This document shows, one piece after another, positions 9,111-46,010 of a stretch of 64,000 nucleotides of DNA. Where the stretch lies: the IMG/VR virus record IMGVR_UViG_3300028591_000078, positions 1-64,000 of that record; one strand, given 5' to 3'. Source of the stretch: a virus. Its lineage: Duplodnaviria; Caudoviricetes. The translations under genes were made by a program, and so were the position numbers. Numbering within the stretch: the stretch's first letter is position 1; every line of letters begins with the position of its first letter. The notes beneath the pieces are model-generated. The model saw nothing but the letters and a program-made list of their open reading frames with translations, did no database searches and was not told where the DNA came from.

Positions 9111-9389
9111 GTGAGCACAATGCAGATAATAAGTCCATTCATCCATACGCCTTGCTATTGTGAGGCATGTGGAGGTGAAACTGTAATGCTAATGACTGAT
9201 TCAGATAGAGCCATTAACTACCCCAGTATAATAGAAAATAATGATATGATGGAGTTGAATAGAATACTCAATATGTCTTGTATCAGTTATATGATGTGTA
9301 AGAAGTGTAATACTAAATATATGATAGATTGGACAGATAGACTACCCAAACCATTATATAATCTTACACCAGCATTAACTATATTATAA
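9111..9389 (+). CDS. Small zinc-ribbon protein (start may be ATG at 9120)
   Basis: CEAC...CKKC. Confidence 0.65.
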   Translation: MSTMQIISPFIHTPCYCEACGGETVMLMTDSDRAINYPSIIENNDMMELNRILNMSCISYMMCKKCNTKYMIDWTDRLPKPLYNLTPALTIL

Positions 9390-9421
9390 AAAATAAGGGC
9401 TGGTTGCCCAGCCCCTGTTTT

Positions 9422-9613
9422 TTACTCGCTGCAAAGCGAGCTGATAAAGTCATCAATGCGGTCTCTAGTTTTAGACGGCTTATATGACTTCTTTATCATC
9501 TTGTCGAGCACTTTGTAAATATTAGTGCTCTTTTTCTGGTTGGGAGCGGGTATCTCCTCAACCATCACGGGAACATACCCATATTCGGGTAAATACCCAT
9601 AGGTGATTTTCAT
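9422..9613 (-). CDS. Small early protein, 63 aa
   Basis: Extended SD GAAAGGAGGTGA, upstream early-type promoter, downstream terminator hairpin at 9398-9416. Confidence 0.7.
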   Translation of the reverse strand: MKITYGYLPEYGYVPVMVEEIPAPNQKKSTNIYKVLDKMIKKSYKPSKTRDRIDDFISSLCSE

Positions 9614-9711
9614 TATGAGTCACCTCCTTTCTCAAAAAGACGTGCTCAGAGGCTTGTTACCTCTGAGCATATCTTTTGTTTTTTATAAGTAAAAAAGAAT
9701 AACTTTCTTAT

Positions 9712-9730
9712 TCACTATTATAATATATAA
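9712..9730 (-). promoter_or_regulatory. Early-type phage promoter TTATATATTATAATAGTGA (copy 1 of 4 identical)
   Basis: Identical 19-mer at 9712, 18854, 29050 and 45992, each upstream of a minus-strand small gene; resembles the phiKZ early motif TATATTAC. Confidence 0.75.
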
Positions 9731-12464: not shown

Positions 12465-12711
12465 TGTAACTATATAGTGACGCAAATTATGATACACATA
12501 TTTCAGTACAGTCTTTTCTTAAACGATTTTCCTGGTAAGATTACCCTCTGGATCTCCCCAGAGGGTAATCTCATGTCTTTTAACACAGATATAACATATT
12601 CATAAGACAAATGTCATGCCTTTTGATGTGAGTCGATTTTGCCATTGGGACCCACGTCCCACACCAGCGCAGGAAACTGCGCTGGCCTTTCTGTGTTTTT
12701 CTGGGTATGTC

Positions 12712-12724
12712 AACATTTTGGTAA
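12712..12724 (+). promoter_or_regulatory. Late-type promoter AACA-N6-TAA
   Basis: AACA TTTTGG TAA 30 nt upstream of ATG 12754; the same motif precedes most structural genes in the window. Confidence 0.7.
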
Positions 12725-12753
12725 TACTAACTTTCGATTGGAGGTACAAAGAT

Positions 12754-15700
12754 ATGGCTGTTACTGCTAATGATCTTAAACCTATGAGATTATATAGTTC
12801 AGGTCGAAAGGTATATTTACCTTTTAATGAAGAAGATAAGAAAAAAGGCTCTGCAATCTTTCTGATGACTCCTAGTATAGAGTCTTCTGTAAAGACTATG
12901 CAGATGCCGTATTTTATTAATAAGAGATCATACGAATCATACTATCTTGAAAGAGATTGCTCATATATAATCAATCATGAGAATCATCTTATAAGAGAAT
13001 ATAATAACGAATATATTCCTATTATGGAAGCTGTAGATGAATCTGTAAATGATTTGTCTAATGTATATTTTGGATCTACTATATTAGAACGTGTTGAAGG
13101 TGATCGTACTATAGTAGATACCAATATGCAGATGCAGTTTATAGGATTTACTAGTGAAGAAGATATAAAAGATATGGAATCTATAGAAGGTGAAAAGCTT
13201 AAGATTATTAATCTTATTGATGAGGATCATGCTTATGTAACCTCAGATCTCCATCTCTTTAAAGATTATGATCATGGTAAACAGTATGTGGATGAGTTAA
13301 TCAGAAAGATTAACTTTAAAGTTAAGCCTACAGATGTACTTATAATCTGTGGCGACCTTATGGATACTGGCTCTAGGGAAGAGGACAAGAAAAAGCTTAA
13401 ATACTTTACATCTTCTCTTAAGTGCAAGAATATAGTACTCATACTGGGTAATAATGATATACTTAAGCTTACTGATTATATAGATTGTGGTATTACCTAT
13501 GTAAATAGTAGACTTACAGTTACAAATGCTGACGGAAGAAAGTGGAAGTTCTCTCATTATCCTTGCGATGTAGATGAGAATATGTTAAACTTCTGCGGGC
13601 ATCTTCATTCTAGTACAGTATACTGGAATATAACTGATCCTAGTAAGTGTATTAATGTAGGATATCCTAATGTAAAGAATAACAGATGTATATATAATAT
13701 CCGAGACTTTCTTATGAAGAGAGCTGAAGGAGATTATAAAGATAATGTATCTGTAAATAAAGATCTTAAAGAGATTCAGGAATCTATTCATGAGAATATG
13801 ATATTCTCTAAGGAGGATATAGAACTTAATCTCGATAAGTGGGGATCTGATAAGTATAATAATATACTTTATATCACAGGATTCTCTGGCTCTGGAAAGT
13901 CTACACTTTCTAGAAAGTATAATAATGTAGAGGTTATATCTCTCGATCAGTTATATCAGGGTGTAATTCACACTTATACTCAGTTTGGCAAGACTCTATA
14001 TGATGAATGTGAAGCATATAGAGAATATGTAGATATAAAGAAGTCTGGATCCAAAGATCCTACAGCTCAGCTTACACTCCAATGCTTACTTTATATACTT
14101 AAGAAAGCTGAAAAGTCTTATCCTGAAAAACGTTTCGTTATGGAAGGTATTCAGATATATAGAGATGTACCTAGAGAGTTAATCTATGGTAGGCCTCTTA
14201 TAATAAAAGGAACTTCTGCTCTCACATCTGCTATCAATAGACTCAGAAGAGAAGATGGCTTCACTACTCATACTCTCTATAAGGGTGTATTCAGCTACTT
14301 TAAGTGGTACTCTATAGATAATAAGCTTATCAAGGGTCTTGAGAAAGATTATAAGTCTCATATAGATACTACTTATTATATAGGAAGCTCTGAAACTTTA
14401 AAAGAAGATACTCAGTATAATCCTGGATATCTTCTTGGTGAAGATGCTAAGATCACTACACTTGGACTTCAGTCTCATGACAGAATGATTATCTTCAATG
14501 AGATGCTTGATGAAGAGGTATTCTATGAGGCTACTAAGTCTAACAATGGAGTTCTGAAGAGACTCTTATATCAGGATAGACTTAAGTCTGTCAAGGATAT
14601 AAATGATATCTACAAAGATATCAAAGAAAGATGTCCTTGGATAAGATATACAAGATATCAGTATAAGCTTTATGCTAAGAAGAATCTGTTTATAGATACT
14701 TACTACTATACAGATGCATTCTTCAGAAACAACTTCTATAAACTTGATAAAGCTGCTAAGCTTTACTTTGACTATATGGATAGATATATAGATGATAAAC
14801 GCTTAGCGGAGTGTGGATATACTAATAAATCTATCTTTATTCCTATATCTGCATGGAAACCTTCTGGTGGACATATATGGAACTATAAAGAATCTATAAA
14901 TCCTATATCTGTACTCTATTATATGATGAAGAATAAGAAGCTTAATATGCTTAAATCTTCATGGGGTAAGTGTAAGATATTCTTCTTAGGAGATATGGGT
15001 TACTTTGTACTTGATCTTCAGGAGTTCAATGAGAAGCAGATTATGAAGTTTAAGATGTTTACTGATAGTCTTGCTGCTAGACAGACTATAACTGAAGATC
15101 CTGAAGAAGATGATCCTATGGTAGACTCTACAAAGGCTATCACTACAGATATAATCAATCGTATTGAGAAGACTCAGCATATAAAGATTGATTATATTAC
15201 TGGTAAGAAGGGTCAAGCTGAAGATACTACTAAAACTCAACTTGCTTCTAAAGCAGAGAAGAATAAAGAAGAGTTTAAAGAGACTGGTTCTCCTAAGACT
15301 AAGCTTGAAATAGAGCGCGATGAAAAGAAGAAACAATTGGTAGAAAGAATAGAAACTGTAGCTGCTAGATCTAATAATGCTGAAGAAGCTATAGAAGATC
15401 TTGATAATGATGAATTCGTTAAGCAGCTTCTTATAGATCTTGCTGCAGAAGAAGATAATGCAGTTAAAGTATCTGCTGCTAGAGCTTCTAGAATGATTGA
15501 ACTGAATGATAAGTTCCATCAGAAGAAGATTGATGGCATATCTGTAAAACAGATGCTTGATGAATATCAGACTTCTGGTTCTGAAGAACTTACTGAAACA
15601 GCTCTGCCTATACATTCTGTAAATGAAGAATGGCAGCATATGAAGTTTATGAACTTCAATAAAGATTATAATATGAATGAAGATATTGTAGCTATTCTTG

Positions 15701-18570
15701 ATTCTCTTGCTACTAAGACAATACCTGTATCTGTAAGAGATATCAATATAGAGAATACTACAACCTCTGAAGATCTTATAGAGACTTGGACTGTAGCATT
15801 GGAAGATGTAGATGGTTCAAGATTTACTCTTAAATTTGATCTTCCTAAGTTTAAGAATGGTAATCTGTTAAGACTTAGAGGTAATGATAAGGCTCTTGGT
15901 GGTCAGCTTATGAATCTTCCTATCATTAAGACTGATCCTGATACTTGTCAGATTACTTCTAACTACAATAAGATCTTTATAAGAACTTATGGCACATCTG
16001 CTGGTAAATCTTTTGAAACTGCAGATAGAATATTCAAGGCTCTTAAGAAGATTGAAGGTAAAACTAAGATCAAATGGTCTACTGGAGATAATTCTAAGAT
16101 CTGTGCTAAGTATGAATTACCTATAGATTATATAGATTTTGCTACTCAGTTTAACTATATAACTATCGGTGCACTGAAATTCTACTTTAACCAGGATGAA
16201 CTTAGAGAGAAATATAAAATAGATCCTAATAAAGGCCTTCCTATAGGATATGATGAGTCTAAGAAGGAAGTTATTTACTGGGATGAAGGTTATTGGACAT
16301 TCTCTAATAAGCTTCTTATTTATTTGAATAATGATAGTCAGTTCGAGGAAGCTTATAGCCAGACTAAAGCTGGCGTAAAGTATACTTATTCTAAGGCTAG
16401 TATCCTTAATACAGAGATTCCTGTAATAGTAATTATGGGATATAATGAAGGACTTACTACAGCTCTTAAGAAGGCTAATATAAAGTATGCTCTTACTGAT
16501 AAGAATCCTTCTACTTTAATTAAAAATCCTGATACTTGTCCTAAAGAAGTATATGATGTAATGACTTTCGGACATGATATAATCAAGTTTCAGGATGGAT
16601 ATCTTATATATCAGCTCAACTATTCATCTTCATTACTTATGAATGGTCTTAAAGAATGTGATACTCAGTCATATTCTATAAAAGAGATCAATACTAAAGC
16701 AATGTGGGTTAACTTCTTAGATGAGTTTGGTGGTAGAATCAGAGCAGATGGTCTTGATAACTTCTATGATCTTATGGTTGATCCTATCACTAAGAGAGTA
16801 TGTGCTGAATATGGTTTACCTGATGACTATTGCACAATGCTTGCATATGCTAATATGCTCTTAGCAGATAATAAGTATAATAGACATACAGATCTTTCTG
16901 GTAATAGATATAGATATGCTGAGATAATTGCTGCACATGCTTATAAATGTATAGCAAAAGCTTATGCAGATTATCGTACTATGAAGAAGAGATCTGCTAG
17001 AGCTACAATGTCTATGAAGCAGTCTGCTATTATAGATTCTGTACTCTTAGAGAATACTCTTACTGATAGCTCTACTATCTCTGAGATTAACTATGTAGAA
17101 ACTTCCCATAATGTATCTTTTAAGGGATTATCTGGTATGAACTCTGATAGATCTTATGGTCTTGACAAGAGAACTTATGATGATTCTATGACTAATCTCT
17201 TAGCAATGTCTACAGGATTTGCATCTACTGTTGGTGTAAATAGACAGACTACTATAGATATGAATATAAAGGGTACTAGAGGATTTATTAAACAGACTAC
17301 AAATAAGGAAGATATGAATGATGTAAACAGCTTAAGTATTACAGAAGCATTGACTCCTTTTGGAACTGTATCTGATGATCCGTTCCGTACTGCAATGACT
17401 CTTGTACAGACATCTAAACACTCTATGAGAGTTGCACATGGATCTCCTAACCTTGTAACTAATGGTGCTGATGATGCTATAGGATATATGTCTCCTGATG
17501 TATTCTCCTATAAGTCTAAAGGTAATGGTAAAGTACTTATAAAAGAAGATGATTATATGGTACTTGAATATACCGACGGTACACATGAGTTTGTAGATCT
17601 TAGAGAGAAGGTATATAAGAACTCTGATGGTGGATTCTTTGTTACTGTAAAACTTGATACAGATCTCAAAGCAGGAAACAGAATAAAGAATAATCAGATA
17701 GTAGCATTCGATAAGTTATCATATACTTCTAAGATTGGATATGATGATAATCCTACTCTTAATAATGGTATGCTTACTAAGGTTGCTATATGTACAACTC
17801 AGGAAGGCTATGAAGACTCTGGTATTATGTCTACATGGTTTGCTAAAGCTATGTCTTCAGATGTAGTGGTAGAGAAAGAAGTAGTACTTCCTAAGAATAC
17901 TAATGTATATAATATAGTAAAGAAAGGTCAACCTATTCAGGAAGGTGATCCATTAATCATCTTCCAGCATGCATTTGACGATGCTGATGTAAACGCTCTT
18001 CTGAAGAATCTTACAGATGATGAAGATGTAATTACAGATATCGGTAGAATACCTGTAAGATCTAAGATCACTGGTATTGTACAAGATATTATTATATATC
18101 GTACAGTAGAGAAAGAAGAACTCTCTGACTCTTTAAGAAAGATAGTAGATTCTTATGAGTCTAATATCAATAAAACCAGAAAGGTTATAGAGAAGTATGA
18201 TCCTGAAAAGGCTAAAGAATATGACTCTAACTATAAGCTTGAAGCTACTGGTAAACTTAAAGATGCAGCTGACTCTGTAAAGATAATATTCTATCTTAAA
18301 TATGTGGATGATATGTCTATAGGAGATAAGACTGTAATGAACTCAGCTCTTAAATCTGTAATTCAGGATATATTCCCTGAAGGACAAGAACCTACATCAG
18401 AGTTTAGACCTGATGAACCTATAGAATCATTCCTTGCAATGAGTTCTGTAAATGCTCGAATGGTTACATCTGTATTCAGAAATGGTCTTATAAATAAGAT
18501 TATGATTGAACTTGACCGTAAGGTTAAAGAGATGAATGGTCTTAAATGGAAGAACCTAAGAGAAATGTAA
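12754..18570 (+). CDS. rpoB: Probable virion RNA polymerase beta subunit with N-terminal metallophosphoesterase and P-loop kinase domains
   Basis: Start at ATG 12754 after RBS ggaggt. Beta motifs FDLPKF..LRGNDK..GQL, DDPFRTAM, GYEDSGIMS, SIGDK, SVNARM. DLH/GDL/GNND/SHYP/GHLH phosphoesterase motifs; GFSGSGKST P-loop. Confidence 0.85.
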   Translation: MAVTANDLKPMRLYSSGRKVYLPFNEEDKKKGSAIFLMTPSIESSVKTMQMPYFINKRSYESYYLERDCSYIINHENHLIREYNNEYIPIMEAVDESVNDLSNVYFGSTILERVEGDRTIVDTNMQMQFIGFTSEEDIKDMESIEGEKLKIINLIDEDHAYVTSDLHLFKDYDHGKQYVDELIRKINFKVKPTDVLIICGDLMDTGSREEDKKKLKYFTSSLKCKNIVLILGNNDILKLTDYIDCGITYVNSRLTVTNADGRKWKFSHYPCDVDENMLNFCGHLHSSTVYWNITDPSKCINVGYPNVKNNRCIYNIRDFLMKRAEGDYKDNVSVNKDLKEIQESIHENMIFSKEDIELNLDKWGSDKYNNILYITGFSGSGKSTLSRKYNNVEVISLDQLYQGVIHTYTQFGKTLYDECEAYREYVDIKKSGSKDPTAQLTLQCLLYILKKAEKSYPEKRFVMEGIQIYRDVPRELIYGRPLIIKGTSALTSAINRLRREDGFTTHTLYKGVFSYFKWYSIDNKLIKGLEKDYKSHIDTTYYIGSSETLKEDTQYNPGYLLGEDAKITTLGLQSHDRMIIFNEMLDEEVFYEATKSNNGVLKRLLYQDRLKSVKDINDIYKDIKERCPWIRYTRYQYKLYAKKNLFIDTYYYTDAFFRNNFYKLDKAAKLYFDYMDRYIDDKRLAECGYTNKSIFIPISAWKPSGGHIWNYKESINPISVLYYMMKNKKLNMLKSSWGKCKIFFLGDMGYFVLDLQEFNEKQIMKFKMFTDSLAARQTITEDPEEDDPMVDSTKAITTDIINRIEKTQHIKIDYITGKKGQAEDTTKTQLASKAEKNKEEFKETGSPKTKLEIERDEKKKQLVERIETVAARSNNAEEAIEDLDNDEFVKQLLIDLAAEEDNAVKVSAARASRMIELNDKFHQKKIDGISVKQMLDEYQTSGSEELTETALPIHSVNEEWQHMKFMNFNKDYNMNEDIVAILDSLATKTIPVSVRDINIENTTTSEDLIETWTVALEDVDGSRFTLKFDLPKFKNGNLLRLRGNDKALGGQLMNLPIIKTDPDTCQITSNYNKIFIRTYGTSAGKSFETADRIFKALKKIEGKTKIKWSTGDNSKICAKYELPIDYIDFATQFNYITIGALKFYFNQDELREKYKIDPNKGLPIGYDESKKEVIYWDEGYWTFSNKLLIYLNNDSQFEEAYSQTKAGVKYTYSKASILNTEIPVIVIMGYNEGLTTALKKANIKYALTDKNPSTLIKNPDTCPKEVYDVMTFGHDIIKFQDGYLIYQLNYSSSLLMNGLKECDTQSYSIKEINTKAMWVNFLDEFGGRIRADGLDNFYDLMVDPITKRVCAEYGLPDDYCTMLAYANMLLADNKYNRHTDLSGNRYRYAEIIAAHAYKCIAKAYADYRTMKKRSARATMSMKQSAIIDSVLLENTLTDSSTISEINYVETSHNVSFKGLSGMNSDRSYGLDKRTYDDSMTNLLAMSTGFASTVGVNRQTTIDMNIKGTRGFIKQTTNKEDMNDVNSLSITEALTPFGTVSDDPFRTAMTLVQTSKHSMRVAHGSPNLVTNGADDAIGYMSPDVFSYKSKGNGKVLIKEDDYMVLEYTDGTHEFVDLREKVYKNSDGGFFVTVKLDTDLKAGNRIKNNQIVAFDKLSYTSKIGYDDNPTLNNGMLTKVAICTTQEGYEDSGIMSTWFAKAMSSDVVVEKEVVLPKNTNVYNIVKKGQPIQEGDPLIIFQHAFDDADVNALLKNLTDDEDVITDIGRIPVRSKITGIVQDIIIYRTVEKEELSDSLRKIVDSYESNINKTRKVIEKYDPEKAKEYDSNYKLEATGKLKDAADSVKIIFYLKYVDDMSIGDKTVMNSALKSVIQDIFPEGQEPTSEFRPDEPIESFLAMSSVNARMVTSVFRNGLINKIMIELDRKVKEMNGLKWKNLREM

Positions 18571-18594
18571 TCTATAACTACCTATACAACTAAA

Positions 18595-18625
18595 AAATAA
18601 AGGGCGAGGATAACCCCGCCCTTTC
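18595..18625 (-). terminator. Intrinsic terminator (probably bidirectional)
   Basis: agggcgagg-ataa-ccccgccct flanked by A and T tracts. Confidence 0.7.
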
Positions 18626-18631
18626 TGGTGA

Positions 18632-18709
18632 TTAACATCCATTGTTCTGCAGTTTAGGGTCTGCATAAACAGCTGGACCTGTATAGTCCGGAGATGTGAC
18701 ATAAAACAT
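18632..18709 (-). CDS. Putative 25-aa peptide MFYVTSPDYTGPAVYADPKLQNNGC
   Basis: SD GAAAGGTAGGTGA before the ATG; lies between an early-type promoter and a terminator. Not in the ORF track. Confidence 0.4.
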   Translation of the reverse strand: MFYVTSPDYTGPAVYADPKLQNNGC

Positions 18710-18853
18710 TGTTAGTCACCTACCTTTCATTTAAATGGCCCAGGAGTGTATGTGTCACTCCTGGGTTGTTTTATCTTCCAATTCATCTTATATAGGAAAG
18801 GCTACTAATATAAGACTACTAAGATATCACCTCCAATCTTATTGTTATCCTAC

Positions 18854-18872
18854 TCACTATTATAATATATAA
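18854..18872 (-). promoter_or_regulatory. Early-type phage promoter (copy 2)
   Basis: Identical 19-mer TCACTATTATAATATATAA on the plus strand. Confidence 0.75.
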
Positions 18873-19233
18873 GTGAGATTTTTAAATTTTGCTTATTTCC
18901 AAAAAATTACTTTTTACAGAAGACAAAACATCCAAGAAAACTAAAATCTAATAGATATATAAAAATCATCTACAAATCGAAATGAGCTACTTAACTTACT
19001 GTACTTACTTGAACAGTGATTAAATTCTGAAAGAATTTAATCACTGCAATAAAAACAAAGATTAAGCATATGAAAATCGACAAGACAAAGGGGTTATAAA
19101 GACCATTATCATTTCCAAGTAGAGATGAATTCTCTGGCTAATTGCCAGAGATCTTTTATTTTTTGAATTCTAATTATAAAACTATATATTCTAGAACTTT
19201 AAGTTAATCAATATTCCTATAATATAGAAAGGA

Positions 19234-22401: not shown

Positions 22402-23151
22402 ATGCGCGACTTTGATCAGGTAGTCACAGCAGACAAGAATACCAATACTCAGATACTTATATCATCAGATATTCCGATGTACTCTGTAAATGACTACGAT
22501 CTTTATGATGAAAAAGATAGAAAGAAATATATAGAAGACGTTAAGAGAGATGCTAGAAGTAGCTATGAATATCATGCTATGGTAGCATTCCTTAAAGAAA
22601 ATATGGATATGAGACGATGCTCTTTCTTAGAGAATGTCGAGAACTATGGTAATGGATGTAAAGTTAAAATAGAACTTCATCATCATCCATTTACTATAGA
22701 TGATATCATTCATATTGTATTAGAAAAAAGAATACAGATGCATGAACCACTCGATGTTGAACTTACCTCTAAGGAAGTAATGTATTTACATTATAATCTT
22801 ATGGTAGGTTTAATACCATTGTCTCAGACTGCACATGAAGCAGTACATAATAACTATATATTCATTCCTAATGAGAAAGTGTATGGTAATTATAAGAGGT
22901 TTGTAAATCTATATTATAACTTCATAGATCCTGAACTACTTGACAAGTTTGATAGACTTGAAGAAATAGGAGATCAGGATAATACTGCTCATTATACAGT
23001 ATTCGAACAGAATAGAATCTATATAATTCCTGAAGGTGAATATAAACAGCCTGATCTGAAGGAGTTACAATCTACTTTACAGACTAGGCTGGATAATCTT
23101 AGAAATGAAGATACTAAGGTTATAATTAATCCTTTCATACACTTAGAATAA
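22402..23151 (+). CDS. HNH-like nuclease-fold protein
   Basis: RRCSF..KIELHHHPF...LIPLSQTAHEAVH; start ATG 22402 after aggtga and an AACA-N6-TAA motif at 22373. Confidence 0.55.
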   Translation: MRDFDQVVTADKNTNTQILISSDIPMYSVNDYDLYDEKDRKKYIEDVKRDARSSYEYHAMVAFLKENMDMRRCSFLENVENYGNGCKVKIELHHHPFTIDDIIHIVLEKRIQMHEPLDVELTSKEVMYLHYNLMVGLIPLSQTAHEAVHNNYIFIPNEKVYGNYKRFVNLYYNFIDPELLDKFDRLEEIGDQDNTAHYTVFEQNRIYIIPEGEYKQPDLKELQSTLQTRLDNLRNEDTKVIINPFIHLE

Positions 23152-23185
23152 AAAATAAACCCGTGGATCACTCCACGGGTTATTT

Positions 23186-23551
23186 TTATGGTAAATAATC
23201 AACTTCTATTGAATATACTCTATCTTTTGAAATAGCTATTAATGTCTTTATAGGAAGCAGGCAATCAGTATAGTCAAGACATACATTATCTATTATGCCA
23301 TTTTCGATATTTGTTTCATCGGCATTAGATATTATACTATCATGAATTACTTCCCATACTTTTTGGAACTCATTTCTATCTATCTCGAAAGATTTATGGA
23401 ATCCATATAAAAGATGGGTGTCTTTAACTCTAAAAGTTTCTGAAGATGTATAAGTTTTCCTATTCTTCATAGACCATGACAAATCTCCAAGTTTTATACA
23501 GATACTCTCCATAAGAATATCTGATATATTATGATATACTACTATCTTCAT
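23186..23551 (-). CDS. Small early protein, paralog of 23548..23922
   Basis: ATGA overlap with the upstream ORF; shared motifs with it. Confidence 0.7.
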   Translation of the reverse strand: MKIVVYHNISDILMESICIKLGDLSWSMKNRKTYTSSETFRVKDTHLLYGFHKSFEIDRNEFQKVWEVIHDSIISNADETNIENGIIDNVCLDYTDCLLPIKTLIAISKDRVYSIEVDYLP

Positions 23552-45619: not shown

Positions 45620-45990
45620 AAAATGCTTTATGAAAAGCGCTTTGTTGGGAGGGCTGTTGCCCTCCCGACGCTTTTTATATTGTACATTAGTGATAACACT
45701 ATGATAAACGAGTAATCGGGTGACCACTCGTTTATCAGGTTTGGGCCTTACCTATTCATAAAGGTAAGGCCAGGTTCAGGGAGATATTCGACTCCCTTAC
45801 CGCAATATAAAGCTCTAAATAAACTTCTAAGCCTTATGTATGCGGAGTTTGCAAGAATACTATCCTGCATTTCAATCACCCACCTTTCTGACTAACCCTG
45901 GAGATACTAGCTCCAGGGTTGTCTTTTATCTTTGGTTCACCGGTGGGTATAGTGAGTAAGTAGTATCACCTCCAATTCTTATTCTCTCTA
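45620..45990. ncRNA. Candidate structured RNA or structured mRNA (array of at least 6 hairpins; contains a 40-codon minus-strand ORF at 45748-45870)
   Basis: Stems gggagggc/gccctccc, tgataaacgagt/actcgtttatca, ggccttacct/aggtaaggcc, agggag/ctccct, ccgca/tgcgg, aaccctggag/ctccagggtt; early-type promoter at 45992. Confidence 0.45.
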
Positions 45991-45991
45991 C

Positions 45992-46010
45992 TCACTATTA
46001 TAATATATAA
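45992..46010 (-). promoter_or_regulatory. Early-type phage promoter (copy 4)
   Basis: Identical 19-mer. Confidence 0.75.

Follow-up and report, generated by a model that had tools for sequence, protein, structure and literature searches.

A start-less Shine-Dalgarno sequence in the leader of an early mini-gene

The window, that is the whole stretch of DNA analysed here, comprises the first 64 kb of a 238,365-nt virus record, 34.7% G+C, whose source, judged from its sequence, is a 238-kb AR9/PBS1-like jumbo phage, a giant gut phage. The element under study is preceded by a gene for a virion-type RNA polymerase beta subunit (12616–18570), whose nearest cultured relatives (30–36% identity) belong to Staphylococcus, Listeria and Bacillus jumbo phages, including PBS1 and AR9. 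The called length of this gene ranges from 1,938 to 2,200 aa among close strains. Because the nearest cultured phages infect Bacillota, and GGAGG is used by 126 of the 231 genes of the genome, the host is probably a member of the Bacillota and would hence possess RNase J.

The promoters mapped in AR9 follow an early (...TATATTAT-N6-G) and a late (AACA-N6-TA/G) consensus (PMC5312081). Early and late sites of this AR9/PBS1 type were enriched before genes here, with 18 early-type sites in the genome by the AR9 consensus and a 4-fold enrichment of AACA-N6-TA before genes. A variant added in this work, AACT-N6-TAA, occurred 21 times before genes against 3.1 expected (7-fold, genome-wide), and we regard it as a true and frequent late-promoter variant of this phage, outside the AR9 consensus. 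The background of antisense AACA/AACT-type late promoters within genes was 0.19 per kb.

The first copy of the element (copy 1) is read from the minus strand. An early (virion RNA polymerase) promoter core at 18862–18872 matches the AR9 consensus, with its predicted +1 at G 18855. A Shine-Dalgarno sequence that has no start codon (SD1, 18826–18834, or +22 to +30 of the predicted early transcript) makes a 9-nt match to the 16S rRNA tail, and a second one (SD2, 18716–18728; duplex −17.5 kcal/mol) is the true ribosome-binding site of a 25-aa ORF (18632–18709) whose ATG lies 6 nt downstream. An intrinsic terminator of the early transcript is located at 18592–18621.

The original prediction had described a leader shared by this locus and a second one near 46 kb (copy 2). 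Its promoter, GAGTAG..AATAAGA, A-tract and second SD were found in both loci, together with an identical 13-mer (18825–18837 and 45964–45976; 0.012 expected per genome) after which no ATG, GTG or TTG occurs, and a stem whose compensatory change is one A-U/U-A swap. From the A-tract to the ATG, the two leaders are more alike than chance would give (z 6.6, 0/1000 shuffles). By itself, AAGATAAAA is not enriched in the genome (13 seen versus 13.1 expected); it is significant only where it adjoins the stem. The 25-aa and 40-aa ORFs of the two loci proved unrelated as claimed, but the former represents an allele of a 60-aa basic ORF from which 105 nt have been deleted in frame.

In copy 2 (minus strand), the promoter lies at 46000–46010 (predicted +1 45993), SD1 at 45965–45973 and the remainder of the leader at 45876–45948, with an anti-SD (45942–45948), the A-tract (45919–45932), the stem (45896–45918) and SD2 (45876–45888). 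The 40-aa ORF of copy 2 (45748–45870) is a paralogue, at 53% identity, of the 51-aa ORF in a third copy, which was found outside the window (genome 66,863–67,260, plus strand). All three units fold very strongly (z −4.4, −12.5 and −9.6). SD2 is locked in copy 2, where it is paired at 0.99 and costs 19 kcal/mol to open (rank 5 of 154 genes), and in copy 3 (rank 15 of 154). The idea that all messages are locked was rejected for copy 1, where opening SD2 costs 6.5 kcal/mol (rank 123 of 154), making it more open than the median gene.

Two sister cassettes share the layout without SD1. One occupies 9377–9730 (minus strand; early promoter 9720–9730, stem 9644–9668, SD 9620–9631) and encodes a 63-aa ORF with a GTG start (9422–9613). 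The other, at genome 133,663–134,000, encodes 59 aa and has a leader terminator and a facing late promoter, with no start-less SD.

SD1 as a probable former start site and candidate message stabiliser

Matches of at least 9 nt to the 16S tail number 17 in the genome; 14 have a start codon, and the three start-less ones are the three leader copies. The SD1/16S duplex has 9 contiguous pairs and a predicted energy of −18 to −20 kcal/mol (−19.6 in copy 1). SD1 sits about +20 to +30 from the predicted +1, a position supported by a cassette of an 81%-identical relative (L146), which has a perfect hairpin starting exactly at the predicted G. In the nascent RNA, SD1 is accessible (opening cost 0.6–2.7 kcal/mol), and in full-length folds it is often paired (0.6–0.8) to a 3′ element. 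It was unchanged in every allele that keeps the promoter: 12 nt are invariant in 7/7 alleles, while the bases on either side vary. A canonical start codon follows SD1 in none of the seven; near-cognate ATC or ATA follows in five, with neither frame nor length conserved, and a conserved leader peptide was rejected as a general rule. A CsrA-type sponge was also considered, but only one GGA loop is present.

Over its initial 55 nt, copy 3 can be aligned with the 5′ end of an early membrane-protein gene at 112,666 (z 8.5, or 6.6 without the first 7 nt); the SD of this gene coincides with SD1, and its ATG with the start-less gap. SD1 is therefore most likely the former start site of an early gene, with the direction of change being one that we infer.

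Start-less SD sequences that stabilise messages have been described as the STAB-SD of Bacillus thuringiensis cry3A mRNA (PMC4113751) and the polypurine stabiliser of phage SP82 (cited in PMC7509114). SD1 resembles them in lying near the 5′ end, ~100–125 nt before the real start, in having no canonical start codon and in its strong 16S-tail match. A STAB-SD does not direct initiation; the 30S subunit that binds it blocks RNase J1 and lengthens the half-life of the message. STAB-SD is found at a processed 5′ end, whereas SD1 is placed 21 nt from a predicted primary one. SD1 also differs in pairing with the inner part of the anti-SD, in lying within a hairpin loop and in its probable descent from a start site that can be identified. 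In AR9, early transcripts were poorly enriched by TEX treatment and are possibly dephosphorylated (PMC5312081), and 5′ protection would therefore matter. In its pairing with the 16S tail and its accessible place near the predicted 5′ end, SD1 is as expected of a STAB-SD-like message stabiliser, and we hold this role to be a tentative but serious candidate. Both L146 cassettes at the copy 1 site have no SD1 and begin instead with a perfect 13–14 bp hairpin. Hairpins at the 5′ end are a known alternative mRNA stabiliser, and their presence in place of SD1 fits the stabiliser role.

On an unlikely reading, SD1 would be vestigial: the 5′ end of an early gene was captured with its ribosome site, which stays alike in three places only through recombination among near-identical early promoters, and the cassette and its antisense unit work without it. 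Homology with the beginning of the gene at 112,666 is as expected under this reading, and SD1 is not required, since it is absent from two of the five cassettes and from both L146 cassettes. Furthermore, promoter-proximal segments are common to other early units, copies 1 and 2 are alike across the whole +1 to +31 stretch, and two alleles (L143 and L067) carry mixed copy 2/3 leaders; because the leaders are mosaic between copies, the conservation of SD1 is possibly owed to conversion, and its identity among copies may reflect gene conversion among near-identical promoters. Against a mere vestige, however, SD1 pairs better with the 16S tail than does its homologue with an ATG (−13 kcal/mol), and the 12 invariant nucleotides are flanked by variable bases on both sides. 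The mosaic segments themselves are copy 2-type leader sequences found at copy 3 loci in other samples (L143 170–296, L067 269–397), a sign of gene conversion between paralogues.

Less likely still is that SD1 serves as a standby or unlocking site, at which a ribosome, or weak initiation at ATA/ATC, would melt the anti-SD helix and free SD2 in the manner of tisB or mok/hok, with the finished 3′ end then masking SD1. Consistent with such a function, SD2 of copies 2 and 3 is locked by sequence 20–25 nt behind SD1, and a 30S-sized footprint lowers its opening cost by 5–7 kcal/mol; in copy 1, where SD2 is already more open than in the median gene, blocking the footprint worsens it. Likewise, a 12-codon frame spanning the anti-SD starts at ATA in copy 3 and L067, and ATC opens 13 codons in strains L148 and L150, but copy 2 and L143 have no near-cognate codon and the frame is broken in L143 and in the window. 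The 3′ end does pair with SD1 in copy 2 (0.83) and in full-length copy 1 (0.6–0.7), yet copy 3, L067 and L143 each have a better duplex than this fold-back. We retain message stabilisation as the leading candidate role for SD1.

Leader stem and facing late promoter as a predicted antisense unit

Read on the plus strand, the leader presents a 10-bp G+C-rich stem (18739–18765 in copy 1) followed by a U-tract (18766–18777) that is the complement of AAGATAAAA..CAA; this arrangement is therefore an intrinsic terminator for RNA running against the leader. The stem of copy 2 is likewise a terminator on the plus strand. Changes in the stem are compensatory, or produce G-U on the antisense strand: copy 1 differs from copies 2 and 3 by the A-U/U-A change, a strain allele (L145) has G-C changed to A-U, and a change in the 9.7-kb cassette of L148 gives a G-U pair only on the antisense strand. 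The original prediction overlooked that the A-tract and the conserved stem form part of a predicted antisense unit.

Late promoters facing back into the cassette were confirmed for copy 2 (AACA-N6-TAA, 45695–45707, plus strand) and copy 3, and one faces the 9.7-kb cassette (9377–9389, plus strand). Copy 1 apparently had no such promoter until the AACT-N6-TAA variant was recognised at 18588–18600 (P1, plus strand; predicted +1 18599), where it overlaps the terminator tail. A second, canonical late promoter (P2) is an intact AACA-N6-TA in L145 and in four further assemblies (L148–L151), at the position of the copy 2 and 3 late promoters. In the window a 105-nt deletion has removed the TA of P2 and left AACA (18634–18646, plus strand), so that P1 alone remains for copy 1.

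The predicted late antisense RNA of copy 1 (~179 nt; 18599–18777, plus strand) covers the ORF and SD2 and ends ~50 nt short of SD1. It folds better than the sense strand (−70.7 versus −64.6 kcal/mol) and contains an 11-bp helix between 18627–18637 and 18710–18720 (probability 1.0). The helix between SD2 and the stop-codon region that had been claimed for the message is therefore real, but it belongs to the antisense RNA: in the mRNA its probability is ~0.07, because the required G-U pair exists only on the plus strand, in whose letters the helix had been written.

Leader terminator and facing late promoter were both present at 5 of the 18 early promoters (9,713; 18,855; 45,993; 66,863; 133,680) and both absent from the other 13, giving a Fisher p of 1.2e-4 that is generous, since two of the five cassettes are paralogues and the late-promoter pattern was widened after the data had been seen. 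Among 103 terminators, a late promoter overlapped the tail in only two, both belonging to these cassettes. At 50 early promoters of other jumbo phages, the leader antisense terminator was found in none and a facing late promoter in two. The facing late promoter is conserved in two non-homologous cassettes at the copy 1 site of L146, in each case as a canonical promoter in the terminator tail. We consider it very probable that the cassettes carry an antisense unit. Two other jumbo phages (L083 and L106) have a short early unit whose terminator tail holds a back-facing canonical late promoter, the arrangement seen in L146.

The setting of the cassettes allows a different, distinctly improbable account, in which the leader stem is a back-up terminator against read-through from flanking late operons and there is no regulatory antisense RNA. 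Copies 1 and 2 and the 9.7-kb cassette do adjoin plus-strand late genes, and on the plus strand the tail of the copy 1 cassette terminator is weak. Copy 3, however, is oriented in the same way as both of its neighbours and yet has the stem and facing promoter, dedicated promoters are present in all five cassettes, and the rarity of promoters in terminator tails argues in the same direction.

Small ORFs, strain alleles and range

In the ORFs of copies 2 and 3, synonymous differences exceeded non-synonymous ones in frame (pS 0.58 versus pN 0.25; 31 codons), with no such excess in other frames, and the hairpins were retained too; both protein and fold are therefore constrained. At the copy 1 site, the 60-aa basic ORF is intact in the four assemblies L148–L151, and the 105-nt in-frame deletion that yields the 25-aa ORF was seen in one assembly. 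L145, again a single assembly, lacks the early promoter and SD1 through a 50-nt deletion and 145 nt of the ORF through another, both lying between short repeats; it is frameshifted in the ORF and retains both late promoters and the stem. The ORF of the 9.7-kb cassette is much diverged in L148 and was retained despite many substitutions. L146 has two different early cassettes at the copy 1 site, and two strains have gaps ~300 nt shorter. We regard the cassettes as units exchangeable between strains.

The idea of a reusable micro-peptide cassette was supported by stand-alone early units, unrelated small ORFs, exchange between strains and protein-level selection on the copy 2/3 ORF. The alternative that had been offered, a family of ribosome-binding ncRNAs, was not supported: the units carry coding ORFs and the covariance model found nothing beyond this phage species. 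The element is best described as the 5′ half of an early mini-gene cassette, not as a free ncRNA family. That the units are nevertheless non-coding 30S decoys with incidental ORFs is very improbable, for although they fold very strongly, contain two SDs and have an ORF that is partly deleted in the window and frameshifted in L145, the synonymous excess is confined to the ORF frame, the 60-aa and 9.7-kb ORFs are maintained in other assemblies, Rfam gave no match and the sister cassettes have no SD1.

Several related arrangements were observed among the strains. The two L146 cassettes stand in tandem (16534–17120, minus strand) with near-identical 5′ hairpins; the first encodes 52 aa and the second has an ORF without a stop before the terminator. 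L148 has an extra early cassette (13936–14260, minus strand) that encodes a glutamine-rich ORF of 74 aa and is missing from the window at 23151–23186. The sequence upstream of this cassette matches the flank of copy 2, which points to recombination via promoters, and L150 has the same promoter and leader start. The gene after the copy 1 cassette occurs as a 57%-identity allele beside a 97%-identity polymerase.

No cassette peptide matched a Pfam, PHROG or Atlas family, and a profile search with the peptides, which have no alignment depth, found only a strain orthologue. No transmembrane segment was detected in them (best 19-residue hydropathy −0.19 for the 25-/60-aa peptide, 0.72 for copy 2 and 1.07 for copy 3). 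Homology between the 60-aa and 63-aa ORFs was rejected, having reached p 0.03 in 1 of 21 comparisons and been lost with the L148 orthologue.

Rfam 15 gave no match at the gathering score in the window, and an E-value threshold returned only terminator-like chance hits; manA-II, the best weak match to the leader, was rejected (18.8 versus 100 bits). Comparison with cultured phages by blastn yielded no match, and pattern scans of IMG/VR and GTDB returned 58 matches, all ordinary SD plus ATG or coding, with other scans empty. JGI metagenomes contained one copy 3 orthologue. The covariance model of the leader (R1), proposed earlier as a check, recovered the three copies in the genome, but in 23 related jumbo-phage records and AR9 it found nothing beyond 25-bit hairpins; so far, the leader appears restricted to one phage species. 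A literature search, with most subscription papers outside its scope, found no paper on such cassettes in jumbo phages. We consider the element to be a real, lineage-restricted regulatory cassette made of known parts.

Comparison with known systems and proposed mechanism

Type I toxin-antitoxin loci with cis antisense RNA, such as hok/sok, aapA/isoA, txpA/RatA and tisB/IstR (PMC8167048), resemble the cassettes in having a small ORF on a heavily folded message and an opposite-strand RNA, predicted for the cassettes, over the ribosome site. Signals for an overlapping antisense gene with its own promoter and terminator are predicted in 5/5 cassettes, the ribosome site is sequestered in copies 2 and 3, and a 5′–3′ fold-back is possible. 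Type I proteins, however, are small, hydrophobic and usually transmembrane toxins that the RNA neutralises. Because the cassette peptides have no transmembrane segment, we did not class the cassettes as type I toxin-antitoxin loci; they differ further in the unlocked SD2 of copy 1 and in that the two predicted RNAs come from two phage polymerases, which would place control with the infection stage. The most type I toxin-like gene observed is the early 74-aa gene at genome 112,666–112,970 (plus strand; L063), with two hydrophobic segments (best 19-residue hydropathy 2.46) and a tightly folded message; it has no facing late promoter, and homology links its 5′ end to the leader of copies 2 and 3.

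A further comparison is AR9 g090, where a measured AACA-N6-TA late antisense promoter lies just behind a 61-aa early-expressed gene and fires back over it (PMC5312081, Tables S3–S4). Unlike the cassettes, g090 ends an operon, has no early promoter of its own, and is described without a dedicated antisense terminator or start-less SD.

The cassettes, as self-contained units between late genes that vary among strains, also recall phage morons. Morons are self-contained promoter-gene-terminator units between late genes and are variable between strains. Unlike morons, the cassettes have a built-in, predicted late antisense unit, and their transcription in this lytic-type jumbo phage would fall to a polymerase packaged in the virion.

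The layout of the cassettes, the non-random co-occurrence of their parts, the strand of the terminator, the coding selection on copies 2 and 3 and the homology of SD1 to a real start can all be read from the DNA. The explanation that fits them best, and which we consider probable, is a two-way, two-polymerase cassette with late antisense silencing and, less surely, docking at SD1; both transcripts, their timing, the silencing and the 30S binding are predictions of this model. Early in infection, the injected virion polymerase would make a 260–400 nt message encoding one small protein. A 30S subunit would dock at SD1, probably an old start site that lost its ATG, 21 nt from the 5′ end, and without initiating would shield the message from 5′ exonuclease. 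Later, the non-virion polymerase would fire in the opposite direction from the far-end promoter and stop at the leader stem and U-tract, and the resulting 180–290 nt antisense RNA, covering the ORF and SD2, would shut the gene off.

Phages with two RNA polymerases of their own face the problem of switching early genes off, since continued activity of the virion polymerase depends on no newly made protein. If built into each selected early mini-gene, an antisense unit read by the late polymerase would act as a simple timer; such units would mark five small proteins as needing silencing and hence as good candidates for host-takeover factors. The leader may also illustrate a route from start site to start-less ribosome dock, with the donor gene still in the genome.

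A more speculative extension, which we consider unlikely, is a dead-man's switch, whereby stabilised early messages for putative growth-inhibiting peptides would stay active unless the lytic jumbo phage progressed to late infection. The injected polymerase would lay these messages down before any phage protein is made, and a host that destroyed the phage DNA midway would be left with them unopposed. Two alleles fit this scheme: L145 lost the early promoter, SD1 and the ORF frame and kept the late promoters and terminator, and in the window allele the loss of one late promoter came only with the loss of most of the ORF. In none of the alleles was the antisense unit missing on its own. The cassette peptides do not resemble known toxins.

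Finally, start-less SD sequences were also observed in other contexts. In an IMG/VR jumbo phage (L105 738–1000, plus strand; L133 3700–3967, minus strand), an early promoter is followed by repeated start-less GAGGAGG units with short hairpins, an arrangement that resembles a processed RNA array.
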